From contig OZ253496.1 of the NCBI GenBank assembly GCA_965262115.1, positions 1,664,001-1,728,000 of the forward strand: a stretch of 64,000 nucleotides of DNA, written 5' to 3'. How positions within the stretch are numbered: the stretch's first letter is position 1; every line of letters starts with the position of its first letter. Below are positions 3,375 through 63,722 of the stretch, one piece after another. Position numbers and translations under genes: made by a program. Origin of the DNA: Nitrospinales bacterium. GTDB taxonomy: Bacteria > Nitrospinota > Nitrospinia > Nitrospinales > VA-1. A model generated the notes under the pieces. It did not search any database and had not been told where the DNA came from. It worked only from the letters and a program-made list of their open reading frames with translations.

Positions 3375-3709
3375 ATGGGAACCAAACGCAGGAGTTTCAG
3401 TAAAGAATTCAAGTTAGAAGCGGTTCGATTGGTTATTGAAGTAGGCGATAGCATTGCCCGGGTGTCCCGGGATCTGGGAATCCGTTCTGCCCTTCTGGGT
3501 CGCTGGAAACAGGAGTATGAGGAGGATCAGGGGAATGCGTTTCCCGGCAAAGGACAGCTTAAGCCGGGAGATGAGTTGCAGCAGTTGCGGCGAGAAAACG
3601 CTCGCCTTCGTATGGAGCGGGACATATTAAAAAAGGCGGCAGTTATCTTTGTGATGTCCTCTTCATTTGTCTTCATGCCCCGAAGGGGTACTCGAAGGGT
3701 TCCCAATGA
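3375..3709 (+). pseudogene. IS3 OrfA (HTH), interrupted by a 41-bp micro-element
   Basis: RRSFSKEFKLEAV...ILKKA. Removing 3650-3690 restores ...VIFSKGSQ* (97 aa) with an ATGA overlap to orfB. Confidence 0.85.
3650..3690 (+). mobile_element. 40-bp micro-element (family B) inserted in IS3 orfA
   Basis: TGTGAT...CTTCATGCCCCGAAGGGGTA; precise removal restores orfA. Confidence 0.85.
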
Positions 3710-4569
3710 GATATCGGTTTATACGGGATCATCGAGAAGCATTTCCGGTAAGCCCGATGTGCCGGGTTCTGGAAGTGGGACGAAGTGGGTTCTATGCCTG
3801 GCTGAGCCGCCCCGAGAGCCTGAGGAGCCGTGAGAAGCAGCGATGGGTTGATGAGATCAAAACCGTTTATAAGAAGAGTCGCCAGACTTATGGCAGTCCC
3901 AGAATTCATGAGGACTTGAAAGACAAGGGATATGCCATTGGCAGGCATCGTATTGCCTGTCTTATGCGCGAGCATGGAATCGTTGCCAAGCACAAAAGAA
4001 AGTTCAGGGTGACAACCGATTCCAAACATAATCACCCGGTGGCAAAAAACAAACTGCAACGGCGGTTTAATGTTGCTGAGCCCGGTCAATGCTGGGTTTC
4101 GGATATCACCTATATCCCGACTCAAGAGGGCTGGTTATACCTTGCGGTGACGCTGGATTTATTCCACCGTAAAGTTATTGGTTGGGCCATGGATCGTTGG
4201 ATAACCCGTTGGTTGGTAATGAGAGCTTTAAATATGGCAATGAAGAACGGCGGCATGAAACCGGGATTGATTCACCATTCTGACCGGGGGGTTCAATATG
4301 CCTGCAACGATTTTCAAGCCTTGCTCAATGTTCATGGGATAGAGTGCAGTATGAGCCGGAAGGGCGATTGCTGGGATAACGCCGTGGCGGAGAGTTTTTT
4401 CCATACTCTCAAAGTGGAACTCATTCATAACCGGAACTACAAAACCCGTCAGCAAGCAAAGAAGGATATTTTTGAATATATCGAAGTGTTTTATAATCGG
4501 CAACGCCGTCACTAATATCTCGGCTATCTCAGCCCTGCCGAATTCGAGAAACAGGCCTATGCCTCTTAA
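3706..4569 (+). pseudogene. IS3 OrfB (DDE integrase core) with premature stop
   Basis: WVSDITY, HSDRG and DNAVAESFF motifs; RRH*YLGYLSP has TAA at 4513-4515 where Ser is expected, and the frame continues to TAA at 4569. Confidence 0.9.
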
Positions 4570-4599
4570 CTAACTGTCCACTAAAACAGGGGAAGATCA

Positions 4600-4637
4600 T
4601 CTCGCTTTTCTGCTTTATAGACTTACGCAAAGGTCTC
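4600..4637. mobile_element. Right half of a family A MITE, truncated by the IS3 end
   Basis: Identical to 54011-54048 (TCTCGCTTTTCTGCTTTATAGACTTACGCAAAGGTCTC). Confidence 0.85.
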
Positions 4638-4727
4638 CCTTTAACCGGAGCGGTTAAAAAAGAACTGGTATTTAATAAACATCTGTTTTATAATGGGGTA
4701 TACTTTAGCGATTTAGCCGTCTAGAGA

Positions 4728-4755
4728 ATGACAGGTGTTTTGCCAGAACTATAAT
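4728..4755 (+). promoter_or_regulatory. Putative sigma70 promoter of the DEAD-box helicase
   Basis: ATGACA-16 nt-TATAAT about 185 nt upstream of the likely start codon. Confidence 0.3.
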
Positions 4756-4940
4756 GTTTTGGTTGAGTAGCCTCCCGGAACCGCCGGTTGTCTGATTTTT
4801 CTCCCCTCGTTTTCTCATTTAAGCTCAAATCCTCTTTTATCAATTATAGCTCAAAGTTCTCTAGTATAGACTTTGAGCGCCATCTAATGGATTGGCCGAT
4901 GCTCCTATTTCGGAGTCTGCCATTCTCTAAAAGGAAAAAC

Positions 4941-6269
4941 ATGTTAATGGAATCAACAACCGTGGGCTTTGACGCCCTCAATCTTGCCGACCCTATTTGC
5001 CGCGCTGTTCGTGGTGAGAAGTATGACACTCCCACCCCGATTCAGCAGCAGGCTATCCCGCATCTTTTGCAAGGCCGGGATCTTTTGGGGTGCGCGCAAA
5101 CCGGAACGGGAAAAACAGCAGCCTTTGCATTACCCATTTTGCATCACTTGTCCGAGGGGCGTCAAGCTCCCGGATCCAAAGGCGCACGCGCGCTGGTGCT
5201 CACCCCCACCCGGGAACTGGCTGCGCAGATCAGTGACAGCTTTCGGGTTTATGGTCGGCATTTAAATTTAAAGCAGGCACTGGTGTATGGCGGGGTGAGT
5301 CCGAAACCGCAAATCACTGCCTTAAGGCGGGGAGTGGATATTTTGGTAGCCACTCCGGGCAGACTGATCGACCTGTATCAGCAGGGATGCCTTCGTCTGG
5401 ATAAAATAGAGGTGCTTGTCCTTGATGAGGCAGATCGCATGCTGGATATGGGTTTCCTGCCTGATATCAAAAAAATTTACGGGATGACACCGGGCAACCG
5501 TCAGTCGATGCTGTTTTCCGCCACGCTCCCTGATGATATTCTGCGCCTGACAAAGCATTTCCTCAAAGACCCAGTGCGGGTCTCTGTGAATCCCCCAGCC
5601 AGCACCGTGGATCGAATAGATCAGCGTGTTTTGTTTGTGGATCGCGAAAATAAAGGAGCTTTGCTGGAATCTGTGTTACAGGGAGATGGCATCGATAGAG
5701 CACTGGTGTTTTCGCGTACCAAGCATGGGGCGAATCGAATTGTCAAGAATCTGAGCAAGGCCAAAATCAAGGCGGATACGATTCATGGAAATAAATCACA
5801 AGCGGCGCGTATGGAAGCGTTGAGAAAGTTTCGTGCCGGGAAAGTCCGTGTACTGGTGGCGACCGATATCGCATCGCGGGGTTTGGATGTGGAAGGAATC
5901 ACCCATGTCATCAACTATGAGCTCCCCAATGAGGCCGAGAGTTATGTTCACCGCGTCGGCAGAACGGCCAGGGCGGGGGCGGTGGGTGTTGCCCTTTCTT
6001 TTTGTGATGCCGGAGAAAGAGGCTATCTGCACAATATTGAGAGAACCATTAACAGGACGGTGACCGTGGTGGCAGATCATCCTTATCATTCGGAATCCGT
6101 TGCCTCAAGGCCAAAACGTGGGAATACAGCGGGAAGAAAATTTTCATCCAGGCGCAATTCTAATTCCTATGGAAAACCGGGAAAAAACCAAAACAGGAAA
6201 AAATATTTTTCAGCAAAACCTGGAAAAAGGACCCGGAGCCGTAGTTCCCGGTCAGCGGTGAGCGGTTAA
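4941..6269 (+). CDS. rhlE: DEAD-box ATP-dependent RNA helicase (RhlE-like)
   Basis: Q motif PTPIQ, AQTGTGKT, PTRELA, DEAD, SAT, HRVGRTAR and a basic C-terminal tail; AAGGA Shine-Dalgarno before ATG 4941. Confidence 0.9.
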   Translation: MLMESTTVGFDALNLADPICRAVRGEKYDTPTPIQQQAIPHLLQGRDLLGCAQTGTGKTAAFALPILHHLSEGRQAPGSKGARALVLTPTRELAAQISDSFRVYGRHLNLKQALVYGGVSPKPQITALRRGVDILVATPGRLIDLYQQGCLRLDKIEVLVLDEADRMLDMGFLPDIKKIYGMTPGNRQSMLFSATLPDDILRLTKHFLKDPVRVSVNPPASTVDRIDQRVLFVDRENKGALLESVLQGDGIDRALVFSRTKHGANRIVKNLSKAKIKADTIHGNKSQAARMEALRKFRAGKVRVLVATDIASRGLDVEGITHVINYELPNEAESYVHRVGRTARAGAVGVALSFCDAGERGYLHNIERTINRTVTVVADHPYHSESVASRPKRGNTAGRKFSSRRNSNSYGKPGKNQNRKKYFSAKPGKRTRSRSSRSAVSG

Positions 6270-6295
6270 AGTACCGGGGGACTTTTAATTTTCGC

Positions 6296-6475
6296 CTCAC
6301 AGACCAGCGCCACGCTGGCACCTGGTGCGGAGAACCTCCGCCCACTAGCCGTGGGGGCAACTAGCAATGATCTATCACTCGAACAACAATACTCTCGGCC
6401 CAATAGGCTATTATTCTTTGGGTCCAGCGCCACGCTGGCCTGTGGTGTTTTCCTCCATGCCTCAGAGCAATAGAT
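6296..6475. repeat. Modular palindromic intergenic repeat (family C)
   Basis: CCAGCGCCACGCTGG twice, GGGGGCAACTAGCAA and CTCTCGGCCC modules shared with 22257, 55595 and 63460. Confidence 0.75.
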
Positions 6476-6480
6476 TTTTT

Positions 6481-6600
6481 TACCCCTGCGGGGCACATGT
6501 AATATTTCTTAATTTGCCTTCATGCCCGGAACGGGTAAAAGTTTAGGAAGTACCCGTGCCGGGCATGAAGTTTAACGAAAAGGACATCACAAATATCACG
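6481..6600. mobile_element. Triple-nested family B micro-elements
   Basis: Outer copy (6481-6497 + 6538-6550 + 6592-6600) interrupted by full copies at 6498-6537 and 6551-6591 in opposite orientations. Confidence 0.8.
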
Positions 6601-6867
6601 CCCAACGGGTGTGACCCGGTTCCTCAAACCAGGTGTCTGTCGCCCATATCCTCTTTTCAGATAAGCAGTTAAAGTTTTTGCAATATTTTCTATGAAGAAG
6701 TCCGTGCGAGCGATTAGAATAGGGGAGCCTGTTAAGGCCTTCTTTGCTTTCACTCCAATCAGGTAATGGATGATGTTTAAATTTATGGTGTGGTTTTCGG
6801 TGATTGTCACCGTAGGTTTTATAGTGTTGTTGGTGTTTGATTACGGTTAAGGTTTACCAAAAAGAAC

Positions 6868-7377
6868 ATGAAGTTATCCCTGTCTTTGATCAAGGCATTT
6901 CTGATTTTTCCGGTGAATGTGATGGGGGTGATTCCTGCCCTTCTGATCTGGTGTTCGCGGCCCGGCGGGGTGCTCGAACATTTCCCATATAGTTTTAATA
7001 GTTTTAGGTCGTTGGCTGGCATTTTGTTGATCGGTGCAGGAGCCGGACTGTGCTGGAAAACGGTTTCCCTGTTCACCGAGGTGGGTGAAGGCACCCCGGC
7101 TCCGTTTGATCCGCCCAGAAAATTGGTGATCCAGGGGCCGTATGTTCATGTGCGCAATCCCATGATGGTTGGGGTCTGGCTGGTTTTGTTGGGAGAGGCC
7201 TTAGCTTTTGGTTCGGTTCCCTTGGTGGTATGGTTTTTGGTCTTTTGTGGGCTGTGCCTGATTCTCATTCCGGTTTGGGAAGAGCCTGATCTGGAAAACA
7301 GGTTTGGCGAACCTTATCGGGAATACAAACGCAAGGTGCCCCGCTGGCTCCTTCACAGGAGAGGCGACCGGCAATAG
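6868..7377 (+). CDS. Isoprenylcysteine carboxyl methyltransferase / PEMT family membrane protein
   Basis: GTPAPFDPP, LVIQGPYVHVRNPM, EE..L..RFG..Y..Y...VPRW signature. Confidence 0.88.
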   Translation: MKLSLSLIKAFLIFPVNVMGVIPALLIWCSRPGGVLEHFPYSFNSFRSLAGILLIGAGAGLCWKTVSLFTEVGEGTPAPFDPPRKLVIQGPYVHVRNPMMVGVWLVLLGEALAFGSVPLVVWFLVFCGLCLILIPVWEEPDLENRFGEPYREYKRKVPRWLLHRRGDRQ

Positions 7378-7437
7378 CTCGTCGGGCTACCAGAAGTTAT
7401 CTCGGCAGAACACCACGGGGTTGGCCCGGATTTTTTT

Positions 7438-7605
7438 ATGAGTGATGACGAAGAAAAATACGGATTGATGGACTGGATTGGTACCGCGATTGGAATCGTG
7501 GTGGCCGGGTTCATCATTTTTATTTTGATCTGGCCCTTGATCGATCCCACACCGGACAAATCTTCTTCGCTAAAAGAAAATATTCACAAGGCCACCGGGA
7601 GATAG
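7438..7605 (+). CDS. Small single-pass membrane protein (55 aa, below the ORF track cutoff)
   Basis: MSDDEEKYGLMDWIGTAIGIVVAGFIIFILIWPLIDPTP...; fills the gap and ends 6 nt from the convergent gene. Confidence 0.55.
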   Translation: MSDDEEKYGLMDWIGTAIGIVVAGFIIFILIWPLIDPTPDKSSSLKENIHKATGR

Positions 7606-7611
7606 CGGTTT

Positions 7612-8343
7612 TCAGTCGAACGGGGGCTGGGTTTTGCGTTTGTAGTCTTTGTCGGTCATATCCATTCGGCCTTTTATGAAAGCCAGCTTTCTTTCAGCTA
7701 TGGCAATGGCCTGATCATTAATAGTTTCTGCTCCCAGTCGTCTGGAGATTTCAATTTCTTCAATAGCCCTTTCCCAGTCTTTCAATTTTTCGTACACACT
7801 TATTAAATTCAGATGGGTCTGCATGTGGTTTGGCTCGATAGCGAGTATTTTCTGATAGTATTCGGCCGCTTCCTTGATTTTCTGGTCGTACCAGTGTTCC
7901 AATGCGATTTTGAAAAGAAGTTCTGTATCATCCGGTTTGAGGGATTCAGCCTTTAAGAATTCTGTCACGGCCAGATCGTTCCGGGTCATTTTCGAATAAA
8001 CTTCTCCCAACCCCAATCGGGCCGGTAAATTTTCGGGTTCCATCTCAAGGGCTTTTTTAAAAGACTCAATCGCCTCATCTCTCTGATCCGCTTCACTATA
8101 GACCAATCCCATCCGGTAATAGGTGACCACCGATTCAGGGTCCAACTCTAGCACCCGGCGCAGAATTTCTATGGCTTCGTCATAAGCTCCAATTCTTTGT
8201 TTTTCAGTGGCGCTTAGGATCAGTTCCCGGGGATTTTGAGATTGGGAAGAGGGGTCGTTATTTTCCCCACAACCCAGGGACAACAGTAAAAAGGCAAAGG
8301 CGATGGTTGTGCGGCCCAAAACTTTTGGCGAAAAAACAAACAC
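7612..8343 (-). CDS. TPR-repeat lipoprotein
   Basis: Lipobox-like LSLGC and several TPR helices (A...F..AL...P). Confidence 0.85.
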   Translation of the reverse strand: MFVFSPKVLGRTTIAFAFLLLSLGCGENNDPSSQSQNPRELILSATEKQRIGAYDEAIEILRRVLELDPESVVTYYRMGLVYSEADQRDEAIESFKKALEMEPENLPARLGLGEVYSKMTRNDLAVTEFLKAESLKPDDTELLFKIALEHWYDQKIKEAAEYYQKILAIEPNHMQTHLNLISVYEKLKDWERAIEEIEISRRLGAETINDQAIAIAERKLAFIKGRMDMTDKDYKRKTQPPFD

Positions 8344-8566
8344 GGGGTTTTAGTCCTTTATAATGAGTTACTTCCCCTTCTACCTGATCCAGACGGATTT
8401 GGCAAGCAACTCCATTGGGCGATGAACAGATGCTTTAATAATGAGGTAAGGTTTATTATAATTACGGAGTTGGGATTCGGGCTGTAGCCCATAAACCCTC
8501 CGGATAAATTTTTCGTGGGATACGCAGGTGTTTTAAAAGATGCCTTTAATAGAATAGGAAAAGACA

Positions 8567-8803
8567 ATGTCAGATGAACTTTCATATATAGAGAATGAAG
8601 AAGGGGGATTTGCAATTCCCTGCCAGATTAAAATCGCTGAAGATTGCGTGCAGGTGGGGGAATTTTGTGAAAGCAAAGAAGAAGCGTGTCACTGGGTAGA
8701 AGAGGAATGCTGGATTTCTTCCGGGGAAGGGTATTTCTGCCTGCAATGCAATGAACAGATTATGCGTAACATCGCTAAACTGGAAACCAAAAAGATGAAC
8801 TAA
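8567..8803 (+). CDS. Small acidic Cys-rich hypothetical protein (possible metal binding)
   Basis: AGGA Shine-Dalgarno; 7 Cys including CLQC. Confidence 0.65.
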   Translation: MSDELSYIENEEGGFAIPCQIKIAEDCVQVGEFCESKEEACHWVEEECWISSGEGYFCLQCNEQIMRNIAKLETKKMN

Positions 8804-9030
8804 CCACTAGGCGTGGAGCCAGTGGGGCGGTGACGCTATTACCCCTGCGGGGCATGAAGGTAAATGAAGGGATATAACACGTGACCGCAAAAAACGTGGG
8901 TCCGGTGGTCATGGTATTTTTCCTTAGCCTTTGTGCCTCGAAGGGGTAAATGAGCAATAGCTTGTGGAGCAAAGAAGTGATTGAGGGCAAGTTAAAGACA
9001 TTGCAATTTACCAGCGGAGGTACTCCGCTT
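8804..9030. repeat. Family C repeat cluster containing two family B copies (8840-8879, 8910-8948)
   Basis: TACCCCTGCGGGGCATGAAG...ATAACA and ...TGTGCCTCGAAGGGGTA; ACCAGCGGAGGT-CTCCGC module shared with about 41813. Confidence 0.75.
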
Positions 9031-9032
9031 CT

Positions 9033-12457: not shown

Positions 12458-12469
12458 GAGATCAAATAA

Positions 12470-33341: not shown

Positions 33342-35621
33342 ATGTTGAAAAAAGCCCACATTTTTTTTGCGGCCCTGATTGGTTTTACTCTTCTTATCTC
33401 GGTCCCCTTTGTGTTTGCTCAAGAAGGTGAAAACATCCAGTCCGTGAAGGTGCAAGGGAACAAGAGGATTGACGAGTCAACGATCCTCTATTACATCAAA
33501 TCCAAGCCCGGCACCGTTTTCTCCAAAAAACAAATCCGTGAGGATATCGAGCAAATATACAGCCTGGGGCAATTCAAGGACATCCGTGTTGAAACGCGCG
33601 AGACCCTGAAGGGGCTGGAGGTTGAATTTTTTGTCGAAGAGATTCCTTCAATTGAGGATGTTGAAATCGTGGGGACTGACAGGGTTGACGCGAATGACAT
33701 CCGGGAAAAAATTAGGCTCAAGCGGGGAGCGACTTTTAGTGATCACCTGGTTCTGGAAAACAGTGAGGAAATCCTCAAGCTTTATCGTGAGAAAGGATAC
33801 TTTTTTGCCCAGGTAAATATCGATACCCAGTCCGGTCAGGAAAACATGGTTAACGTTACCATCAGGATCAAGGAAGGAGAAAAGGTAAAAATTGAAAAGA
33901 TCCGTTTTTCAGGAAACAGATCCTTTCCGGATAAAGAACTCCGTGAACAGATGGAAACTCAGGAAAGGACCTGGTATTCCTTTATAGATGATTCAGGAGT
34001 GTACCAAAAAGATATCTTGAAGCTGGATATGTTCCGGGTAGAAGGTTTTTACCACGATCACGGTTTTCTCAGGATCAAGGTATTGGAGCCTCGTATAGAG
34101 ATCAACAAAAAATCCAGGGAAGTTCATATTGCTATCCCGGTTGAGGAAGGTCCGCAGTTTCGCGTGAAGACTTTGGACTTGAGTGATGATGATGCGGTTT
34201 CTCCGGATGAAATTCAAAAAAGCATTCAGACGAAGGTTGGCGACATCTACAATGTGTCCCAGCTTCGTCAGGATATTTTAACGATCACTGATTTGTACTC
34301 CCAAAAAGGTTATGCCTATGCTGACGCGAACCCGATATCCAAGTTAAACGATGAAGATCGCACCGTTGATTTGTCCATTGAAGTCGATAAAGGCAAAAAG
34401 GTTTATGTTGGCAATATTGAAATTCTGGGAAATATTAAAACCCGGGACAATGTTATCCGCCGTGAATTCCGGCTGAAGGAAGGGGAGTTGTTTGACGGTT
34501 CCAAATTGAAGCGGAGTAAACAACGGGTCAACAACCTCAACTTTTTTGAAGATGTCAAGATTGATACCCATAGAGGCCAGGATCCTGACCTCATTGATAT
34601 CCTCACGACAGTGACAGAAAGGCCGACCGGGTCGTTTTCAGTAGGTGCTGGTTTTAGCTCGGTTGAGAATTTGATTTTTACTACCTCCATCACCCAGGAC
34701 AACCTGCTCGGAAATGGTCAGAGGCTGAGCTTGAATGCCCAGTTGTCCTCCATCCGTTCGGATTTTAATTTAAGCTTCACCGAGCCGCGTTTGTTTGATT
34801 CCGAAATACTATTTGGAGTCGATGCGTTTAATGAGGAGCAGGATTTTCTCAGCTTCGATTCCCAATCAATCGGAGGCGGTATTCGCCTGGGTAAAAATAT
34901 TTCTGAGTATGATTCAGTTAACCTCAGATACCGATTTGAGGATGTAGAGGTGACGGGGGTGGCCGCAGACGATGAAACGGAGTTTTTTAAGAATGAGACC
35001 CGCGTGACCAGCAGAATTGCTCCCACCTATGTTCATGATTCGCGGGATAATTTTTTAAATCCTTCCAGGGGATGGAGGCATGTGGTAGGATTTGAACTCG
35101 CCGGCCTGGGAGGCGCTAAATTCACCAAATCCTTTTATGAAGTGACGTACTACCACCCCCTGTGGGGGAAGCTTGTTGGTGCGGCGCACGCCCGGATTAA
35201 TTACGCGGCGGGGTATGGTGGAGAAAAGCTTCCAAGTTTTGAAAGGTACTTCATGGGAGGGCCGACTTCCCTCAGAGGCTTTACGATTGAAGATGTCGGG
35301 CCAAAAGATAGGGATGGCGATCCGGTAGGGGGTAACCAGGCACTTCTTTTGAATTTGGAATTACAGTACCCCTTTACCAAATCTTTTCGCGGGTTTGTGT
35401 TTTATGACCGTGGTAATGTTTATGGCAGTCGTCCTGACACTGGTACTGCATCTACTACATCCGATAATTTTGACTTGGGAAAAATGCGCAGCAGCGTAGG
35501 CGCGGGTATTCGTTTTATCAGTCCTTTTGGCCCACTGGGTTTTGCCTATGGCATCAAGCTGGACAAGGAAACTGGCGAAGAGGCGGCAGAATTTCATTTC
35601 TCGGCAGGAAGCGCATTTTAA
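33342..35621 (+). CDS. bamA: Outer membrane protein assembly factor BamA
   Basis: Signal peptide, POTRA domains, LRGF motif, SPFGP and terminal Phe. Confidence 0.95.
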   Translation: MLKKAHIFFAALIGFTLLISVPFVFAQEGENIQSVKVQGNKRIDESTILYYIKSKPGTVFSKKQIREDIEQIYSLGQFKDIRVETRETLKGLEVEFFVEEIPSIEDVEIVGTDRVDANDIREKIRLKRGATFSDHLVLENSEEILKLYREKGYFFAQVNIDTQSGQENMVNVTIRIKEGEKVKIEKIRFSGNRSFPDKELREQMETQERTWYSFIDDSGVYQKDILKLDMFRVEGFYHDHGFLRIKVLEPRIEINKKSREVHIAIPVEEGPQFRVKTLDLSDDDAVSPDEIQKSIQTKVGDIYNVSQLRQDILTITDLYSQKGYAYADANPISKLNDEDRTVDLSIEVDKGKKVYVGNIEILGNIKTRDNVIRREFRLKEGELFDGSKLKRSKQRVNNLNFFEDVKIDTHRGQDPDLIDILTTVTERPTGSFSVGAGFSSVENLIFTTSITQDNLLGNGQRLSLNAQLSSIRSDFNLSFTEPRLFDSEILFGVDAFNEEQDFLSFDSQSIGGGIRLGKNISEYDSVNLRYRFEDVEVTGVAADDETEFFKNETRVTSRIAPTYVHDSRDNFLNPSRGWRHVVGFELAGLGGAKFTKSFYEVTYYHPLWGKLVGAAHARINYAAGYGGEKLPSFERYFMGGPTSLRGFTIEDVGPKDRDGDPVGGNQALLLNLELQYPFTKSFRGFVFYDRGNVYGSRPDTGTASTTSDNFDLGKMRSSVGAGIRFISPFGPLGFAYGIKLDKETGEEAAEFHFSAGSAF

Positions 35622-35642: not shown

Positions 35643-36185
35643 ATGCGATTGACAATTTTTCGGAAGTTCAGAATCATCTGCCCACTACTCATTTTGGGTT
35701 TTTTAGTTTGCGGACCTTTTGCAGTTTCGTCTTTTGCCGCAGATAGCCGGATAGGGTTTCTGAATATTCAAAAAGCGGTTTCCAGTACCAAGGAGTGGAA
35801 AACCAGGTTTAAAAAATTTAAAACGGATTTCACCAAAGAGAAGAAAAGAATCAAGGTTAAGGAACGGAAGATCAAAAAAATGTTGGAGGATTTGAATAAA
35901 CAAAGCTTTGTTCTGGATCCGAAGCTGAAAAAGAAAAAAGAAGACACATTTAGAAAAGAAAAAGTTGCTTTTGAAAGATATGTCCAGGACCAGAACGCGG
36001 AGTTCGGTAAAAAAGAAAAAGAAATGGCCCAAAAAATCCTGCTTAAAATGATGGGGATCATAAAAAAAATCGGCAAAGAAAAGAAATATACAATGATCCT
36101 GGAGCAGAAGTCGGTTCTATATCACGATAAAGGAAACGATTTGACGGGCATTGCGACCCGGGCCTATAACAGGGCTAATAAATAG
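35643..36185 (+). CDS. skp: OmpH/Skp periplasmic chaperone, copy 1
   Basis: Signal peptide, IGFLN, Lys-rich coiled coil, YTMIL...DLT; lies after bamA. Confidence 0.88.
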   Translation: MRLTIFRKFRIICPLLILGFLVCGPFAVSSFAADSRIGFLNIQKAVSSTKEWKTRFKKFKTDFTKEKKRIKVKERKIKKMLEDLNKQSFVLDPKLKKKKEDTFRKEKVAFERYVQDQNAEFGKKEKEMAQKILLKMMGIIKKIGKEKKYTMILEQKSVLYHDKGNDLTGIATRAYNRANK

Positions 36186-36275
36186 TTTCTGGTTATGCTC
36201 CAGCTAAAATAACCTGCTCGACTCCCGCGCTTGAACTCGCTGAAATTTCCAGAAAAGTCATAGGCATTCAACAGT

Positions 36276-36343
36276 GAGACCTTTGCATAACCTCGAAGGG
36301 GTAATCTCGCTTTTCTGTTTTTTTCGACTTATGCAAAGCTCTC
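36276..36343. mobile_element. Family A MITE, internally deleted (duplicated at 37096-37163)
   Basis: TIRs GAGACCTTTGCATAA / TTATGCAAAGCTCTC; 9-bp TSD TTCAACAGT/TTTAACAGT; carries a CCTCGAAGGGGTA family B remnant. Confidence 0.8.
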
Positions 36344-36462
36344 TTTAACAGTAAGAATGGACTCCTGATATGATGGATATTAATGAAATCAAGAAAATCA
36401 TACCCCATAGATATCCTTTCTCGGCAGGAAGCGCATTTTAAATTTTAAAAAGGATCAGATTT

Positions 36463-37005
36463 ATGCGATTGACAATTTTTCGGAAGTTCAGAATCATCTG
36501 CCCACTACTCATTTTGGGTTTTTTAGTTTGCGGACCTTTTGCAGTTTCGTCTTTTGCCGCAGATAGCCGGATAGGGTTTCTGAATATTCAAAAAGCGGTT
36601 TCCAGTACCAAGGAGTGGAAAACCAGGTTTAAAAAATTTAAAACGGATTTCACCAAAGAGAAGAAAAGAATCAAGGTTAAGGAACGGAAGATCAAAAAAA
36701 TGTTGGAGGATTTGAATAAACAAAGCTTTGTTCTGGATCCGAAGCTGAAAAAGAAAAAAGAAGACACATTTAGAAAAGAAAAAGTTGCTTTTGAAAGATA
36801 TGTCCAGGACCAGAACGCGGAGTTCGGTAAAAAAGAAAAAGAAATGGCCCAAAAAATCCTGCTTAAAATGATGGGGATCATAAAAAAAATCGGCAAAGAA
36901 AAGAAATATACAATGATCCTGGAGCAGAAGTCGGTTCTATATCACGATAAAGGAAACGATTTGACGGGCATTGCGACCCGGGCCTATAACAGGGCTAATA
37001 AATAG
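36463..37005 (+). CDS. skp: OmpH/Skp periplasmic chaperone, copy 2 (identical)
   Basis: Identical protein to 35643-36185. Confidence 0.85.
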   Translation: MRLTIFRKFRIICPLLILGFLVCGPFAVSSFAADSRIGFLNIQKAVSSTKEWKTRFKKFKTDFTKEKKRIKVKERKIKKMLEDLNKQSFVLDPKLKKKKEDTFRKEKVAFERYVQDQNAEFGKKEKEMAQKILLKMMGIIKKIGKEKKYTMILEQKSVLYHDKGNDLTGIATRAYNRANK

Positions 37006-40346: not shown

Positions 40347-40417
40347 GTCTGGCGAGCCGCCGGTGGCTGTGATACTCCCAACATTAGCTTCATGCCCCGA
40401 AGCAACTGTGTTAAATG

Positions 40418-41368
40418 TCAAGTGCTGGCAATGAGATTTTCATTCCAGAGTGTTTTTGTTTTGATCATGGTATTGATGATCGTTAATAACTTTCTCATGC
40501 ATGCGGTAATGGCAACTTTAAAGGGTTTGCCCTTTTCGATGAGGCGTGTGTAAAAGGTACGAATCACGGGATTATGCTGCATGGCAGTGACGGCGGCCAT
40601 GTATAAAGCGGCACGCACATTGGCGCGACCGCCCCAGATACACCGGCGGCCCCGGAACTTTCCGCTGTCCCGATTGAGGGGAGCGAGACCGATGAGGGCG
40701 GCGATTTGCTTCTGATTAAGAACTCCAAGTTCCGGAACCCCGGCCAAGAGGTTGACAGCCAGAACGGGACCGGCACCGGGAACACTTTGTATGATCTGGT
40801 CGTGCTCACGCCAGGCAGAACTGTTTTTGATGGTTCTGGAAAGGTCGCCATCGATTTTTCGCAAGCGTTTTTTAAGAGATTCGATATGCTCCTTAATGTC
40901 TTTACATATCCATTTTGGAGCTTGTTTTAGACGGGTTTTTTCTTTGGTCAGCATCTCGATCAACTGGCGACGGCGTGTCACTAGAGCTGAGAGTTCAAGA
41001 GATTCTTCGTCTTTGATTTTCCTGACCTCAGGACGTATGGCCTTGGCAAAATGGGCCAGCACAAGAGAATCAATGACATCGGTTTTTGCCAGTTTCCCGG
41101 TGGCTTTGGCAAAATCACGAACTTGCCGTGGGTTGACCACGGCTACTGGCAGTCGACCCGCAACCAGGGCCGAAGCCAACGGGATCTCTAAGCCGCCTGT
41201 GGCTTCCAAAACGATCAATGGAGGATTTAAGGCGGATAAACTCTCGACCAAACCAGCAATCCCTTCTTCATTGTTAGCGGTTTGCCAGGTTTCTTGAGTC
41301 ATGCTGTCAGCAACATCCAGATGGAGTTTAGAAATATCGATGCCAATAAAATGGGGTTTCTGATTCAT
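40418..41368 (-). CDS. IS110 DEDD recombinase/transposase (intact, 316 aa)
   Basis: GIDISK, LEATG and KTDVID give the DEDD tetrad; SVPGAG, RDSG catalytic Ser, GGRANVRAALY and ACMRKLL. Confidence 0.96.
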   Translation of the reverse strand: MNQKPHFIGIDISKLHLDVADSMTQETWQTANNEEGIAGLVESLSALNPPLIVLEATGGLEIPLASALVAGRLPVAVVNPRQVRDFAKATGKLAKTDVIDSLVLAHFAKAIRPEVRKIKDEESLELSALVTRRRQLIEMLTKEKTRLKQAPKWICKDIKEHIESLKKRLRKIDGDLSRTIKNSSAWREHDQIIQSVPGAGPVLAVNLLAGVPELGVLNQKQIAALIGLAPLNRDSGKFRGRRCIWGGRANVRAALYMAAVTAMQHNPVIRTFYTRLIEKGKPFKVAITACMRKLLTIINTMIKTKTLWNENLIAST

Positions 41369-41374
41369 AATTTG

Positions 41375-41584
41375 GTCTCCCAGCCTTGCCGATGCGGGCT
41401 CAGTGGCCCAGGCAACTGTTCGGGTTAATCAAAATAGGACACAACGATCTGCGCTTCGGGACGGGCTTAAAAGCCCAAGGGGTAAACGATCTATTGTGCC
41501 CTGAATCAAATCCTGGGAGCTTGTGGAAAACACAAAACCGGCTTCCCACAGGGCTCACAGGTACAACTACTACAAATTCCCCTT
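41375..41584 (-). ncRNA. Bridge RNA (5' stem-loop, target-binding loop, donor-binding loop)
   Basis: Target guides TTTACCCCT (41486-41478) and TCCCGAAG (41461-41454) flank a GGGC/GCCC stem; donor guides ACAGTTGC (41419-41412) and GCAAG (41389-41385); 5' hairpin at 41512-41561. Boundaries approximate. Confidence 0.85.
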
Positions 41585-41605
41585 ATGAACAACATACAAG
41601 GGGTA

Positions 41606-41874
41606 AACTGGCAATATCTTTAACTTCTGGGCAAAAAGTTATCTCGGCTTGAGAAACTCCACTGGAACGTCATCGCGAGCTGCGGCGCGGCGATCCAGTT
41701 TTGTTTGCATCATGCCCAGAAGGGGTAAAATAAAGGCATTGTAATCTGCCACCGGCGGCTCGCCGGTTAACCCGAGATGCTGATCGAGAACAAAATGAAG
41801 ATAATGGAAATTACCAGCGGAGGTTCTCCGCCCACTAGCTGTGGAGGCAGGAGCAATGCCCATGGAGCGAGAGC
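41606..41874. repeat. Family C repeat cluster with a partial family B copy (to 41727)
   Basis: AAGTTATCTCGGC, CATGCCCAGAAGGGGTA, CCACCGGCGGCTCGCC and ACCAGCGGAGGTTCTCCGCCCACTAGC modules. Confidence 0.7.
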
Positions 41875-53880: not shown

Positions 53881-54048
53881 GAGACCTTTGCATAACCCAA
53901 GATTCTTCGTTGCAATAGCTCCTCAGAATGACAAAATAGCCTTTTATTGTCATGCTGAGCTAGTGATATTTGACCTTTGAATTCTTGCCCCGTAGGGGTA
54001 TCTCGAAGCATCTCGCTTTTCTGCTTTATAGACTTACGCAAAGGTCTC
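53881..54048. mobile_element. Family A MITE with nested family B copy (53962-54000)
   Basis: TIRs GAGACCTTTGCATAA / TTACGCAAAGGTCTC; perfect 9-bp TSD CTTAAGAAC (53872-53880 and 54049-54057). Confidence 0.9.
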
Positions 54049-55531: not shown

Positions 55532-55594
55532 GAGCACCCCATAAAAATTACTATATTTTTCGGAGTGGTAGAGGGAGTAAAAAAGCAAGGCCTT

Positions 55595-55700
55595 ATTCAG
55601 CCGAGCCACCGGGGGCAACTGGCAAAGACTTGCTAAGCCGAGACAACTCTTTGCACGCCAGAAAAAGCCATTGCTCATTGGCCCCACGCCTAGCCCGGAT
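55595..55700. repeat. Family C repeat (provides empty sites for family B insertions)
   Basis: GGGGGCAACTGGCAA, GCCGAGACAACTCT and GCTCATTGGCCCCACGCC. Confidence 0.75.
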
Positions 55701-55822
55701 ATTGCATGAGTATTGCTGTGCGCAGGGAGAAGGTTAGGATGAGGGGGATAATAAAGATCAAGCCTGCTTTTTTACTTGTTTACTCATGCAATATGCGGGC
55801 TAGTGGACGGCTAGGAGGCGGC

Positions 55823-56983: not shown

Positions 56984-57079
56984 TCAGGTTTAAAGATTCC
57001 TTTACGGTGACCATAGAATGCAGTCTTGTTGGGAGGAGTTTTTTGAGCTATAAAATTGATGAACCAGAGGTGGAAAAAA

Positions 57080-58048: not shown

Positions 58049-58075
58049 TCCCGATTTTGCGGAGACTGTGGGGGG

Positions 58076-59545
58076 TCAACTGGCTTTGTGTTTTTCCAGG
58101 ATTTTTTCCAGGGTTTGTGTGGTGGAATGGCCCTGGACAATGGGAATGATCTCAACTTTTGCCCCGTAGCCTTCAACGATTTCCCGGCCGACAACGTCAT
58201 CGATTTTATAGTCGTCTCCTTTTACCAGAATATCAGGCCTTATTTCTCGGATGAGTTTTTCGGGAGTGGTTTCATCAAACAGGGTGATGTAGTCGATATA
58301 TTTTAAAGCCGAAAGAATATTGGCGCGTTCTTTTTCAGATTTAATGGGCCGGTTTTCCCCTTTTAATTTTTTAACGGACTGATCAGTATTGAGTCCGACT
58401 ACAAGAATATCCCCAAAGGCTTTTGCTTTTTGCAGGAACTCGATATGTCCCCCGTGGATAATGTCGAAACAACCATTGGTGAACACCACCTTTTTTTCCG
58501 TGCTCTTTGCAAGGCCGATGATTTTTTTCAGCTCTTCGAGCCCAAGAACGGTATGAGAGGTGCGTAGCATCTCTTCGTGCAGAAATTCGTTAATTTCTTC
58601 CAGGGTCACGACAGCGGTTCCCACTTTTCCGACAACAACACTGGCGGCCATATTTGAAAGCCATGCGGCTTCCTCAAAATTGAAACCCACAAACACTGCC
58701 ATACCAAAGACACTGATGACCGTGTCTCCGGCACCGGTAACATCAAAGACTTCTTTGGCTACGGTGGGGATGGATATGAGTTTCTCCTTGTTTTGATAGA
58801 GCGACATGCCGTCTTTCCCCTGTGTGATCAGGATGGCCTGTGCCTTCGTCAGGTTCAAAATGTATTCGGCGGCCCGGCCCAGGTCTTCTTTATCCTTGAT
58901 TTTGATGGGAACTGAGAGAGCGACCTCCCTTAAATTGGGGGTGATGACGGTGGCGCCTTTGTATAAGGAGAAATCTGAGCTTTTAGGGTCGACGATGACA
59001 GGTTTTTTAGATTTCTGAGCCCGGTGCATAATCGCCTTAATGACTTTTTCAGTCAGAATGCCTTTATGGTAATCGGAGCAGATAATCCCATCTATTCCGG
59101 GAATAGTCTGATTGATATACTGAATCAACTTTTTTTCAGTTCCTTCGGTGATGGGACGGTTGTCTTCCTTGTCGACTCGCAAAATCTGCTGGTTATGGGC
59201 GATGATCCTCATTTTGGAAGTCGTGGGACGATGGACGAACCGGAAAATTCCTTCCGTTTGAATAGAACGGTCATGGATGGTTTGTAAAAGTTTATCGCCC
59301 TTTTCATCCTGTCCGATGGCGCCGCAAAGATGGACTTCGCATCCGAGACCCACAAGGTTATTGGAGACATTGGCGGCCCCGCCCAAAGCCAGGTTTTCGG
59401 AGCGCGTTTCCAGGATGGGAACGGGAGCCTCGGGAGAGATGCGATGCACTCCTCCCCAGATGTATTCATCCAGTATCAAATCGCCGACAACGAGAATTTT
59501 TGGCCGCTCATTGCTGTTGAAAAAAAATTTAAACTTTTCTTTCAT
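58076..59545 (-). CDS. hldE: Bifunctional heptose 7-phosphate kinase / heptose 1-phosphate adenylyltransferase
   Basis: RISPEAPVP, DVTGAGDT and FTNGCFDIIHGGH. Confidence 0.95.
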   Translation of the reverse strand: MKEKFKFFFNSNERPKILVVGDLILDEYIWGGVHRISPEAPVPILETRSENLALGGAANVSNNLVGLGCEVHLCGAIGQDEKGDKLLQTIHDRSIQTEGIFRFVHRPTTSKMRIIAHNQQILRVDKEDNRPITEGTEKKLIQYINQTIPGIDGIICSDYHKGILTEKVIKAIMHRAQKSKKPVIVDPKSSDFSLYKGATVITPNLREVALSVPIKIKDKEDLGRAAEYILNLTKAQAILITQGKDGMSLYQNKEKLISIPTVAKEVFDVTGAGDTVISVFGMAVFVGFNFEEAAWLSNMAASVVVGKVGTAVVTLEEINEFLHEEMLRTSHTVLGLEELKKIIGLAKSTEKKVVFTNGCFDIIHGGHIEFLQKAKAFGDILVVGLNTDQSVKKLKGENRPIKSEKERANILSALKYIDYITLFDETTPEKLIREIRPDILVKGDDYKIDDVVGREIVEGYGAKVEIIPIVQGHSTTQTLEKILEKHKAS

Positions 59546-60106
59546 TTACAAATCTTCTTCAATAAGTTCACAAATGATATGCCCGATGGTTATATGCACT
59601 TCCTGAATTCTCGCCGTATCGTTGGAAGGAACGACGATAGATAAATTCGCGATCTCTTTTATTTTACCCCCATTGTTGCCCACCAGTCCAATGGTCTCTG
59701 CACCGAGGGCATTGGCCTTTTTCAAGGCTCTCACAACATTTTCCGAGTTGCCGCTGGTGCTGATTCCCACCACTGCGTCGTTTTCATGGGCCAGGGCTTC
59801 GAGTTGTCTTTCAAAAATTGTGTCAAAACCATAATCATTTCCCAGAGCAGTTAATGAAGAGGTGTCGACCGTGAGGGCGATTGCGGACATGGCCCGGCGT
59901 TCTTTTTTGAATCTCCCGACCAGTTCCGCAGCGATATGCTGGCAGTCGGCCGCGCTTCCGCCGTTGCCCATTAATATCAGTTTCCCTCCTTTATCAAGGC
60001 AGGACTTGATACGATTTGCCGCCTCCAGAATATCGCCTGAAAGGGTATCGGCGACCTTTTTTTTCAATTCGGCGCTGGAATAAAGAAAATCTTTAACGCG
60101 TTGCAT
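59546..60106 (-). CDS. gmhA: D-sedoheptulose 7-phosphate isomerase
   Basis: GNGGSAAD.QH, NDYG, STSGNS and ARIQE.H. Confidence 0.95.
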   Translation of the reverse strand: MQRVKDFLYSSAELKKKVADTLSGDILEAANRIKSCLDKGGKLILMGNGGSAADCQHIAAELVGRFKKERRAMSAIALTVDTSSLTALGNDYGFDTIFERQLEALAHENDAVVGISTSGNSENVVRALKKANALGAETIGLVGNNGGKIKEIANLSIVVPSNDTARIQEVHITIGHIICELIEEDL

Positions 60107-60140
60107 AGGTCTCCGTGGTGCTAAAAAATTAAATGTACAA

Positions 60141-60218
60141 CCCCGCCGCAAGCGGACCGGGAATCCTAACGAAAGTGTTATTTTAAAAAACGTGGCAAGC
60201 CACAGGGAATAAAACCCG
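60141..60218. repeat. Paired hairpin element, possibly an IS200/IS605-derived remnant
   Basis: CCGC-AA-GCGG...GGGAAT and GTGGC-AA-GCCAC-AGGGAAT: two related hairpins in direct orientation. Confidence 0.4.
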
Positions 60219-60240
60219 ATTGTGGGATTCGTAAAACATC

Positions 60241-60960
60241 TTACATTATACAGGTACTATTATACAGCAAGCCTTCATCGGCAAAACTAAAAAACCCATT
60301 GCCTCCGATAATAATGTGGTCAACCATAGGAATTCCGACAATTTTTCCGGTTTGGTTGAGCCGGTGGGTGATTTCAAAGTCTTTCTGGCTGGGAGTGGGG
60401 TCCCCGCTTGGGTGGTTATGGATTAAGGCGAAGGATGCCGCAGATTCCCGGATCGCCGGGATCATGACCTCCCTGGGGTGGACAATGCTGGCATTCAAAC
60501 TTCCTTCCGATATAGTCAGGTCTTTAATAAATTGCAGCTTGGGGTCCAGGAGTACGATCTTTACAATTTCCTTTTTCAGATTTTTCAAAAAAGAGGAGAA
60601 CTGTTCCACAAAATCCTGGCTGGACTTTAATTTTATTTTCATGCCTGTTGGTTTTGCAGCCATGCGCTTTCCCACTTCCAACGCGGCTTTGATTTGTGCC
60701 GCTTTGGCGGCACCGATGCCTTTTACCTGACACATTTCGGTGACCGTTGCCTGATCCAGATTTTCCAGGGTGCCGAACACGCTAAGCAAATCCCGGCTCA
60801 AGTCCACCGCGTTTTTTTTGGCGCGTCGATCCCCGGACCCGATGAGGATTCCCAACAGATGTGCGTCCGACAAGGTACTGCTACCATATTTGATCAATCT
60901 TTCACGCGGACGCTCATCTTCCGGCCAGTACTTTATCGCAGACTTGTTTTTTCCTGGCAT
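60241..60960 (-). CDS. radC: RadC / JAB-domain protein
   Basis: ERPRERL, HhH GIG.AKA, HPREV, HNHPSG...PS..D and DHII. Confidence 0.92.
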   Translation of the reverse strand: MPGKNKSAIKYWPEDERPRERLIKYGSSTLSDAHLLGILIGSGDRRAKKNAVDLSRDLLSVFGTLENLDQATVTEMCQVKGIGAAKAAQIKAALEVGKRMAAKPTGMKIKLKSSQDFVEQFSSFLKNLKKEIVKIVLLDPKLQFIKDLTISEGSLNASIVHPREVMIPAIRESAASFALIHNHPSGDPTPSQKDFEITHRLNQTGKIVGIPMVDHIIIGGNGFFSFADEGLLYNSTCIM

Positions 60961-60985
60961 GTCAACATCCCGGATTTCAGATTTT

Positions 60986-61921
60986 TCAGCTAAGCAGATG
61001 TTCTTTGAAATATTTCAGAGTCGATTGCAAACCCTCGTCCAGACTGACTACAGGTTCCCAGTTTAAATGTTTTCTGGCGCGGGTGATATCGGGCTGCCGG
61101 ATTTTTGGATCATCTTCCGGTAAGGGAACGTAAATTATCTTACTCTCGCTGTGAGTCGCTTGCAAAATTTTATCGGCCATTTCTTTAACCGTCATTTCAT
61201 TTGGGTTGCCAATATTAATGGGATAATTCTGGTCTGACATCAGCAGGCGATAGAGGCCTTCAACGAGATCCGACACGAAACAGAAACTTCGTGTCTGTGA
61301 GCCTTCCCCGTAGACCGTTAAATCTTTTCCCGTGAGAGCCTGTTTCAAAAAATTAGGAATGGCCCGACCGTCATTGACCCGCATGCGTGGTCCATAGGTA
61401 TTAAAAATACGGACGATCTTGGTGTTGACCCCATGTGTCCTGTGGTAAGCCATGGTGATGGCTTCGGCAAATCGTTTGGCTTCGTCATAGACACCGCGTG
61501 GGCCAACGGGGTTCACGTTTCCCCAATACTCTTCAGGTTGCGGGTGGATCAAGGGGTCGCCATAACCTTCAGAGGTGGAAGCAAGAAGAAAAGTGGCCTT
61601 TTTGGCTTTTGCCAGACCGAGGGCATTATGCGTACCCAGCGCGCCAACTTTGAGAGTTTGAATGGGAAGCTCCAAATAGTCAATAGGACTGGCAGGGGAT
61701 GCGAAATGAAGAATATAATCCAACTTGCCTTCCAGGTTGATATATTCGGAGACATTGTGTTCCACAAATTGAAACTTCTCGCTTTTTAAACCGGATATAT
61801 TATCTCTGGAACCAGTGATAAGATTATCCATGCAGACCACCTCATGGCCTTTATCGAGAAAGTATTCGCATAAATGCGAACCCAGAAAACCTGCGCCGCC
61901 TGTGACCAATGTTCTTGGCAT
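60986..61921 (-). CDS. UDP-glucuronic acid decarboxylase family SDR
   Basis: [34 protein letters not shown] and DDP..R.PDI. Confidence 0.92.
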
Positions 61922-61928
61922 ATTCACC

Positions 61929-62876
61929 TCATGATTGATTTGGAACCGGATCAAACAGAGTTCCCCGTTCAACTTTATTGCCAGCTAGAAAACTTTTAGC
62001 CGACATACTTTTTTTACCTTCTGGTTGCAGTTCGGTGATGACCAGTCGTCCTTGCCCGGTGCCCACCTCAATGCCCATATCGGAAACTCGGGCAACCTTT
62101 CCCGGCATGTCATCGGAAACTCCCTCAGCGATCTGAACTTTTAATATTCGTAACCGTTTCTTGTTTAGCAAAGTGAAGGTTCCCGGCCATGGGGTCAGGC
62201 CCCGAACCTGATTCGAAAGAGTGGTGGCAGACTGCTCCCATTTGATCAGGCCTTCTTCTTTTTTCAGTTTGGCCGCATATGTGGCTTGGTTGTGATCCTG
62301 TGGGACAGGCAGCAGCGTATTTTCTTCAAGCCTCTTGAGGGTCTCCATTACCAGAGTCCCCCCAATTTCAGACAAGGTGTCGTGCAGGGTTTGTGCGTTA
62401 TCGGTTACATGGATAGGAGTTTCTTGCCTGAGCAGAATGTCTCCGGTATCCATGCCTTTATCCATAATCATGGTGGTGACTCCCGATTTGGTATCGCCGT
62501 TAAGAATGGACCGATGAATGGGAGCCGCCCCTCGGTATTTAGGTAAAAGCGAGGAATGGAGGTTAATGCAGAACTGCTTGGGAATTTCAAGAAAGGTCTC
62601 ACTCAATATTTGTCCGAAAGCGACCACGATAATTATGTCCGGCCGATTTTTTTTAAATGACTCGATAAACTCTGGGTCATTCACCGTTTCAGGTTGCAGT
62701 ATGGGAAGGTTAGAGTCCAACGCATACTGTTTGATTGGGGAAACAAGAAGTTTCTGTCCCCGGCCCTTCGGCTTGTCGGGCTGGGTGATGACGGTCAGTA
62801 CGGAATGTGAAGAATGGTGCAGGACCTTAAGGGTTGGAAGCGCAAATTCCGGCGTTCCCATAAACACAATATTCAT
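61929..62876 (-). CDS. fmt: Methionyl-tRNA formyltransferase
   Basis: [12 protein letters not shown] and [16 protein letters not shown]. Confidence 0.96.
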
Positions 62877-63385
62877 GCATCCTGCTCTTTGATTTTCTTT
62901 TTGAATTTTCGTTTTAGAATATCCCGTTTTACTTTTCCCAAGTTGTCCCAAAAAAGAACGCCGTTTAAATGATCCATTTCATGTTGAAAGGCTCGCGCCA
63001 GGTACCCTTCGGCTTCATAGCGGACTTCGTTTCCATCGAGATCGTAGCCCTTGATTTCAATCTGGCTGGCCCGGGTCACTTCTGCCATCACATCAGGAAT
63101 ACTCAGGCAACCTTCCTCCCCGAGTTCACTGCCCTCCATAGACGTTATTTCCGGATTGATCACGGTCACCAGGTTTTCTTTATCGGTTTCGACACCGATG
63201 TTTATCACAAACAAGCGCCAGGGCAACCCGATCTGGTTGGCAGCAAGCCCGACTCCCGGAGCGGCGAGGGTGGTTTCCACCATATTTCCCGCAAGGGTGA
63301 CCAGCTCGCCATCAATATCATCAATGGGCAGGCACATTTTCCTTAAAACAGGGTCGAGGCAGTTTTTTATTTCCAGCAAAGCCAT
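62873..63385 (-). CDS. def: Peptide deformylase
   Basis: GVGLAANQIG, EGCLS and QHEMDHLNG. Confidence 0.96.
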   Translation of the reverse strand: MALLEIKNCLDPVLRKMCLPIDDIDGELVTLAGNMVETTLAAPGVGLAANQIGLPWRLFVINIGVETDKENLVTVINPEITSMEGSELGEEGCLSIPDVMAEVTRASQIEIKGYDLDGNEVRYEAEGYLARAFQHEMDHLNGVLFWDNLGKVKRDILKRKFKKKIKEQDA

Positions 63386-63459
63386 GTTTATAAACCTTAT
63401 CGGTCATCCACCGAGATATCAGTAATCACTGGTCAATTTTAATACAGAATGGAACCCGT

Positions 63460-63722
63460 ATCCAGCCCCACTCGGCGTGGCCAGCGTGACGCTGGACCCA
63501 ATGAGCAAGAAGTGATCTTGATTTTTTCTGGCTCCGCGCCGAGCGGTCAGCGACCGAGGGCAGATAGTAAGAGCGTATAAGGCCGAGACATCTCTTTTTT
63601 TGCCAGCAGAGTCATGCTCATTGTACCCCTCCTACCCCTTTGGGGCATGAGACAAGTGAAGAAATATCACAGGCTCATGAAAACTAATGAGGGGGTATCA
63701 CAGCCCCACGCCGAGTGGGTTA
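63460..63722. repeat. Family C repeat with doubly nested family B copies (outer 63624-63702, inner 63633-63671)
   Basis: Removing 63624-63702 restores GCTCATTG|GCCCCACGCC, identical to 55673-55690. Confidence 0.8.

Follow-up and report, generated by a model that had tools for sequence, protein, structure and literature searches.

A 39-41-base repeat of Nitrospinales that almost certainly moves as a unit and whose two ends probably pair

A stretch of 64,000 nucleotides from a Nitrospinales bacterium (contig OZ253496.1, positions 1,664,001 to 1,728,000; hereafter the window) contains a family of very short repeats, here called family B, that we regard as almost certainly a mobile unit. The unit is 39-41 bases long, has ends reading X-GTGAT ... 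C-Y-TGCCCN-GNA-NGGGTA, where X is base 1 and Y the 16th base from the 3' end, and forms one hairpin only. A genome-wide count revealed hundreds of copies with fixed ends both in the genome that holds the window (G000; 2.68 Mb in one contig, 94% complete by markers) and in its closest relative, a sister species that is ~96% identical (G013; 2.78 of its 2.86 Mb covered). The strongest covariation within the element links X with Y, and on this comparative evidence the pairing of the two ends is probably functional.

For counting, the insertions of an IS110 element (24) were removed and nested copies were then peeled iteratively, inner first. A pattern for the 17-base hairpin gave nine matches in the window with at most three mismatches, compared with a mean of 0.33 in shuffled sequence, and pattern matching combined with iterative removal of inner copies recovered all of the window copies listed in a preliminary description of this DNA. 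The features are as follows.

3650-3690, plus strand: family B copy of 41 bp in an IS3 element, just past its A6G frameshift motif
6481-6600, minus strand: outer family B copy, 39 bp after removal of two inner copies (iterative removal)
6498-6537, plus strand: inner copy of 40 bp, on the opposite strand to the outer copy (iterative removal)
6551-6591, minus strand: inner copy of 41 bp (iterative removal)
8840-8879, minus strand: family B copy of 40 bp (pattern and iterative removal)
8910-8948, plus strand: degenerate copy of 39 bp that keeps a C:G end pair
36291-36303, plus strand: 3' hairpin remnant, duplicated with its surroundings at ~37111
40368-41605, plus strand: copy of 40 bp with a 1.2-kb IS110 in its loop, which leaves 40368-40402 on the left and 41601-41605 on the right
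41711-41727, plus strand: orphan 3' half of a family B copy
53962-54000, plus strand: copy of 39 bp, A:T end-pair subtype, within a family A palindrome
55674-55690, minus strand: empty form of the repeat that hosts the 63624 copy
63624-63702, minus strand: outer copy whose hairpin reads AGCC, not CCCC, just before the inner copy (upstream rewriting)
63633-63671, minus strand: inner copy of 39 bp, placed 5' of the outer loop

The inner copies at 6498, 6551 and 63633 could be peeled from their outer copies, confirming that the family nests within itself, and the remnants at 36291/37111 and 41711 proved to be 3' halves. Two further matches to a loose pattern, at 33824 and 34565, both fall within a gene and are chance. 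Related strains were compared as assembled contigs: copy 6551-6591 appears to be missing from one such contig (run X8), the depth of which equals that of the contig covering both flanks, and at the 63624 site the whole region is missing or replaced. Once joined, the flanks of the 63624 copy match the repeat seen near 55674, as had been proposed. The remnant at 36291 lies in an exact tandem duplication of ~820 bp (window 35643-37005) that also carries an OmpH-like gene.

In G000 the loose two-part pattern found 304 unsplit copies, compared with 6 and 1 in two shuffled genomes; after peeling there were 358 (172 of 39 bp, 75 of 40 and 94 of 41), of which 326 passed a stricter filter, and G013 contains 499 (473 strict). 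Only 27 of the 326 strict copies overlap called open reading frames (ORFs), although ORFs cover 79% of the genome. The ends are not ragged in the genome-wide alignment, carrying 1.5-1.9 bits inside the element and <0.25 bits directly right of its end. The TGTGAT initially proposed as the 5' consensus was correct for GTGAT, the first base being T, C or A rather than T alone, and the loop, described as nearly always GAA, GCA or GTA, is indeed GNA provided that GGA is added (the four loops account for 568 of 601 distinct sequences). Covariation of the terminal stem is real, with C:G, G:C and T:A giving 90% pairing versus 54% expected.

That the 39-41-mer itself is the moving part is indicated by filled and empty sites. 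A search with the joined flanks of 246 junctions gave 41 exact empty matches in the register that places X inside the element, against 19 and 12 in the neighbouring registers; at 62 discriminating sites, many of them in repeat families or tandem junctions, 55 favoured this register and 6 did not. An earlier pass over 145 pairs yielded 18 empty sites, 41 filled in both and 86 otherwise rearranged. Between species, 988 queries left 16 distinct orthologous filled/empty pairs after filters, so that orthologous empty sites exist; none of the three outcomes named in the preliminary description as speaking against it was encountered. The length offset in these pairs was none in 11, one base in 4 (two of which look like a 1-base duplication) and two bases in 1. 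Precise excision without duplication, as originally claimed, thus describes most orthologous pairs, whereas about one-third have differing upstream bases and some have one extra base. Family B lacks both the terminal inverted repeats and the target duplication by which miniature inverted-repeat transposable elements are recognized, in support of the earlier view of a non-autonomous micro-element without the former and usually without the latter. Arrays run head to tail, and the polymorphic unit is a single 39-41-mer. At tandem junctions, most of which join unlike copies, the downstream copy begins with T in 85 of 85 cases, whatever the upstream type, and we therefore consider that new copies inserted behind existing ones give rise to the tandems, although some arrays consist of up to five identical copies.

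These data bear on the view that family B represents the scars of deletions, or the ends, of some known insertion sequence. The copies are short and non-coding, and in the window they adjoin IS3 and IS110, as a scar might. These two elements are, however, host and parasite of family B, a relation of host and target and not of origin; none of the orphan hairpins, 38 in G000 or those among 272 loci, borders a transposase; and it is the 39-41-mer itself that is cleanly present or absent. We regard this view as already largely refuted and very improbable. A longer element with the same two ends flanking a transposase was looked for and not seen among the G000 orphans, the loci, the Y1 transposase loci read and a genome, G048, in which two copies 1.1 kb apart have no transposase between them.

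The covariation between X and Y amounts to 0.81 bits, the combinations being T:A, C:G and A:T. The two bases can pair in 87-89% of cases, against 46-47% by chance: at 240 of 269 junctions of G000, at 387 of 436 of G013 and in 522 of 601 distinct sequences, for which 46% would be expected. Metagenome loci gave 126 of 160. A spanning tree built from the other alignment columns has 468 edges, 110 of which carry a change of X, and 64 of these changes are compensated. Among 37 distinct 39-mers (35 from G013, at least 4 differences apart, and 3 from the window) there are 12 two-sided changes, a score reached by 0 of 500 shuffles in a test that relatedness inflates. Base 2 (G) faces an invariant C next to Y, and joining the end of the element to its start would give an 8-bp stem of X:Y, G:C, the terminal T:A, G:T, three C:G and a variable pair, with the joint in the 3' arm and a ~20-base loop at the other end. 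The minimum-energy fold of the circular form includes X:Y in 113 of 150 copies. Sequences found at two or more junctions kept X:Y in 42 of 43 cases compared with 378 of 428 for the others (p=0.07). The G:T wobble and the GNA loop fit one strand only. The junction-spanning pair lends support to the single-stranded intermediate suggested earlier, which would probably be a circle.

Our preferred interpretation, which we hold tentatively and at a little under even confidence, is that family B is a non-autonomous single-stranded element whose own fold would bring the two cut sites together and that is moved in trans, most likely by a lost or unrecognized HUH-type enzyme. For the enzyme class taken alone our confidence is similarly restrained and is even at most. 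In this model bases 1-2 would pair with the two bases before the hairpin and stack directly on the terminal T:A, so that both scissile bonds, flank to X and A to flank, would come to lie at one position of the 8-bp helix. If the two bonds were exchanged, the element would leave as a dumbbell-shaped circle and its flanks would be sealed; run backwards, the reaction would insert the circle at a new site. The strand would thus probably be closed into a tiny circle, with the enzyme supplied from elsewhere. The 3' end would be joined first and exactly, whereas joining of the 5' end would sometimes involve flap processing or repair, with 1-5 upstream bases rewritten or one base added. The bases 5' of the hairpin foot guide cleavage in IS200/IS605 and TnpA-REP (PMC3479197, PMC8266576), and IS200/IS605 elements form single-stranded circles and leave no target duplication (PMC5027513).

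Targets fall into 113-159 clusters, many of which are other palindromic repeats or family B itself, with self-insertion in the loop, the middle and the 3' end. The preference is for G at -5 (59-72% of clusters), a purine at -3 and A/T at +1 to +3, with A rare at -2. In the 16 orthologous pairs, mismatches affect 25 of 96 positions at -6 to -1 but 8 of 96 at +1 to +6 (p=0.002) and 34 of 416 distal positions. Where family B hairpins serve as targets in G000 and G013, AGCC occurs in 0 of 453 empty and 23 of 33 filled copies; in a second, unrelated repeat of the two genomes, 15 of 17 filled sites show the CC-to-AG change at -4, -3, compared with 1 of 112 empty ones. The sites within one target family are non-independent in these counts, and the change occurs in the two unrelated families with about eight different inner sequences. 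GTAG at -5 to -2 is confined to filled sites of three more families (0/46, 0 vs 94 and 0/269 empties); a single founder mutation may lie behind the GTAGA class. Metagenome loci repeat two of these rewriting patterns in small numbers (0/125 empty and 3/5 filled; 0/8 empty and 2/2 filled). No template for the rewritten bases was found in donor flanks, the element middle or new junctions. An agreement with positions -24/-23 that was noticed post hoc (34 of 78 cases, 17 expected) could not be reproduced in a further 126 junctions (z 0.5). The variable middle was rejected as a target guide, there being no Watson-Crick signal over target clusters (z<1 at the register originally proposed and a best z of ~2.5 among 16 offsets), and targets are not placed directly 3' of hairpins, 383 folded empty junctions showing no clear arm boundary at the cut.

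Such rewriting could instead be a founder allele copied along, if a few founder insertions had then spread by riding in larger repeats and by short-patch gene conversion among repeat copies. Copy number does owe much to hitch-hiking within larger repeats and IS3: of 565 distinct junctions, 123 belong to a single target family, 17 IS3 copies share one insertion site, copies in G048 ride inside a larger palindrome, and near-identical copies share both flanks. The number of unrelated target clusters, the near-identical copies at unrelated junctions, the unique phage sites and the recurrence of the same CC-to-AG change in two unrelated families with some eight inner sequences all argue against this explanation, and conversion leaves the compensated X:Y changes unexplained; we consider it unlikely. 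In G048 four tandem ~85-bp units lie between two hitch-hiking family B copies (L464 ~1700-2150).

Several observations weigh against a single-stranded element moved by an HUH-type enzyme. No mover was found in any carrier examined, and the Y1 family is absent from G000, G013, a third carrier with 83 copies (G007) and 16 of 23 genomes of the genus; none of 13 Y1 loci read has the family B hairpin at its ends. The strand bias expected of an IS608-like element, scored on local GC skew because the genomes are rearranged, is absent in G000 (166 vs 160), and the excess in G013 (268 vs 205) lies on the C-rich strand, opposite to the prediction. The closed circle is only marginally stable, with a mean of -0.4 kcal/mol, and the extra pairs would therefore need a protein. 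Copies without X:Y are no more decayed elsewhere than the others (0.57 vs 0.62 deviations, p=0.61). The IS200/IS605 guide reads bases 5' of the cut, whereas the covarying base of family B lies 3' of the left cut. HUH strand transfer alone, finally, leaves flanks unrewritten. The Y1/RAYT mover put forward in the preliminary description is so far not borne out in the copy-richest genomes, by the 13 Y1 loci or by strand bias. Family B might be the first example of a minimal "DNA splicing" transposon, a 40-base strand in which the end-to-start helix sets the cuts, a dumbbell circle is formed and an enzyme outside the known transposase families inserts it while editing the upstream target, although we judge this appreciably less than even and doubtful as it stands.

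The wider search for a mover was similarly negative. The only Y1 trace in G013 is a decayed fragment, and Y1 occurs in 16 of 70 genomes of the family, including the copy-free G009. There was no PF01797 match in G000, no hit above cut-off for the RAYT profile NF047646 in five genomes, no IS91 Y2 in the same number (an uninformative result, as the control was without a match anywhere) and no TnpB or resolvase in four genus genomes. HUH proteins were found neither among the 59 Pfam-scanned of 286 lineage-specific ORFs near copies nor among the 46 PHROGs-scanned of 101 phage ORFs. Two nucleases were considered and rejected: DUF559, present in 14 of 23 genus genomes and commoner in copy-rich ones, was not found in G007, and a small GIY-YIG nuclease, also in 14 of 23 and the best tracker within the genus (p=0.006, uncorrected for kinship), occurs in only 1 of 6 genomes of genus g15, all six of which carry family B. 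The small GIY-YIG genes (G013:C1:1937700-1938500; L002 1330-1960) are flanked by family A arrays of GTCAT/CGTC type in a REPtron-like arrangement. CGTC repeats are described as lacking a dedicated transposase (PMC3733652), which makes this nuclease a candidate mover for family A. DUF559 matches number nine in G000 and include five near-identical copies; the same genome abounds in a C-run/G-run palindrome that also hosts family B, and the two form a possible nuclease-repeat pair.

We consider that family B probably moves as DNA rather than RNA. An RNA route would start from an end-paired transcript whose 3' end is joined to the target and reverse-transcribed, the 5' junction forming by microhomology with the donor flank; the lack of replication-strand bias in G000 is compatible with it. 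The one-sided upstream changes (25/96 vs 8/96) also resemble 5'-exon co-conversion, which occurs in group II intron and R2 homing. Such a route has reportedly been proposed for the small dispersed repeats (SDRs) of cyanobacteria. The reverse transcriptase is, however, broken in G000, single in G013 and not found in G019 or G007; copies have no orientation bias to neighbouring genes (89 vs 88; 127 vs 114); and the six copies within window 3600-9000 gave no Rfam match even at an E-value of 1. Systematic carry-over of the donor left flank was not shown, near-identical copies at unrelated sites sharing both flanks only weakly. The covarying stem pair closes a three-base GNA loop, a DNA-type motif, GNA triloops being unusually stable DNA hairpins. 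These points make the RNA route quite unlikely.

Family B is carried by marine nitrite oxidizers and by some phages that infect them, and its distribution is patchy. In a first sample, 20 of the 22 further genus members had the full pattern, as against none of 18 genomes from outside the genus; in the bacterial family, 35 of 69 genomes are carriers. The hairpin end alone was found in 38 of 120 Nitrospinota genomes and 7 of 30 genera (6/6 in g15, 6/17 in g20 and 2/21 in another family), and among the matches listed from an all-species collection (at least 80 loci) 79 were labelled Nitrospinota or Nitrospina and 1 came from another phylum. A 50-kb contig of a tailed phage that encodes an integrase holds six copies, and a Mu-like phage contig holds another, indicating that family B crosses replicons. 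The phage contigs L451, L452, L457 and L462 carry family B together with host repeat families and are a likely route between genera.

This distribution also bears on the proposal that the same self-closing strand is handled by host enzymes, namely flap nucleases with ligase, a type IA topoisomerase or XerCD, with no dedicated transposase. The folded donor would be a helix with a 5' and a 3' flap, the repair of which would explain the upstream rewriting and the single extra bases, and the lack of a dedicated mover in every carrier examined would be expected. XerC/D-like genes were present in all five genomes searched, but the same host genes occur in the copy-free G009, and family B is scattered patchily over 7 of 30 genera. 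The strong conservation of GTGAT and of the GNA loop suggests a specific protein, and the family B stem is much shorter than those of attC or CTX attP. We therefore think it improbable that host enzymes suffice.

Family B in turn shapes the genome that carries it, being the only target of a 24-copy IS110 and interrupting the frameshift of the resident IS3. The elements concerned are the following.

40403-41600, minus strand: IS110 element targeting the family B loop, DEDD recombinase at 40418-41368
41454-41487, minus strand: predicted target-binding loop of the IS110 bridge RNA, its function inferred from IS621
3310-4599, plus strand: IS3-family host element, orfA with HTH_Tnp_1 and orfB with rve

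All 24 long IS110 copies in G000 sit in the loop of family B with the 5' half of the hairpin on one side, and the single copy in G013 is likewise flanked by a 5' half. The leader of the element corresponds to the target on both sides, by identity over 11 bases on one and by complementarity over 7 on the other, the layout of IS110 bridge RNAs. Because just 4 of the 23 genus genomes were found to have it, this IS110 exploits family B rather than being its general mover. Several IS110 copies have unlike left and right flanks, which suggests rearrangements between copies.

The 17 near-identical IS3 copies are the only IS3-type transposases in G000, and all 15 with a detectable orfA end contain the family B insertion; about ten also hold IS110 inside the inserted copy. 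With the insertion the -1 frameshift product ends at 111 residues, and without it the product runs to the end of orfB. The claim that excision restores orfA holds in that removing 3650-3690 gives a normal orfA end and the full frameshift product, on an empty site that is a reconstruction because no uninterrupted IS3 copy was found in G000 or the other DNA covered; among plasmids, too, no relative of this IS3 that spans the site was found. The IS3 copies may have multiplied with the help of an intact copy since lost, through occasional precise excision or by some other means of recoding.

No description of family B was found in the literature searched, most subscription papers lying outside the search, and the accessible text of 10.64898/2026.10.21.760802 contains no mention of Nitrospin-. 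Repetitive extragenic palindromic (REP) sequences and their composites, BIMEs and REPINs (PMC3479197, PMC8266576, PMC3116915, PMC3733652), are likewise short intergenic hairpins in hundreds of copies, in which bases 5' of the hairpin foot pair with a dinucleotide at the cut; they too are targeted by an IS110, and some group 3 REPs have a 3-base loop. Family B differs in lacking a GTAG or CGTC tag, its foot reading TTC-Y with Y = A, G or T, in moving as a fixed 39-41-base unit and not as an inverted dimer, in that the paired dinucleotide is its own variable 5' end, and in that no RAYT (REP-associated tyrosine transposase) adjoins it or occurs in the copy-richest genomes.

IS200/IS605 elements also lack terminal inverted repeats and target duplications, and the joined-end circle that we infer for family B would be a further likeness. 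The same likenesses extend to palindrome-associated transposable elements (PATEs), which are non-autonomous derivatives of IS200/IS605. Both differ from family B in the number of hairpins, IS200/IS605 having two and family B one. In place of the fixed 4-5-base target of IS200/IS605, family B has only a loose G at -5; no complementarity between element and flank was seen in the replication set. Family B is also without lagging-template bias, has flanks that are sometimes rewritten and has no TnpA with these ends. IS621/ISPpu10-type IS110 elements (PMC11208160, 10.64898/2026.03.19.712850) resemble the parasite and not family B itself; what they share with the IS110 next to family B is insertion at a single position in a repeated palindrome and a leader that carries the corresponding guide.

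Closest of all may be the SDRs of Nostoc, which are described in papers that cite them (PMC5861425, PMC2884548, PMC3116915) as tiny, probably mobile and inserted in other repeats, with no known mover. By the same descriptions they differ in being ~20 bp long and reported from Nostocaceae only. How REPs, SDRs and other transposase-less tiny repeats spread is a long-open question, for which family B offers a sharply defined substrate of 40 bases with three interchangeable end pairs and natural filled and empty alleles. The end pairs make compensatory-mutation tests straightforward, and an enzyme proposed as the mover has to leave the same one-sided junction footprint. Should the mover prove to be new, its chemistry would be scarless single-strand insertion with a very small recognition unit.

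Two observations concern other parts of the genomes. Near the contig start of G000 (C1:1-40000) there are several long low-complexity and short-period repeat stretches, possibly assembly artefacts, and G013 contains an ORF of 11,334 residues (C1:1902601-1936605) with several large paralogues.

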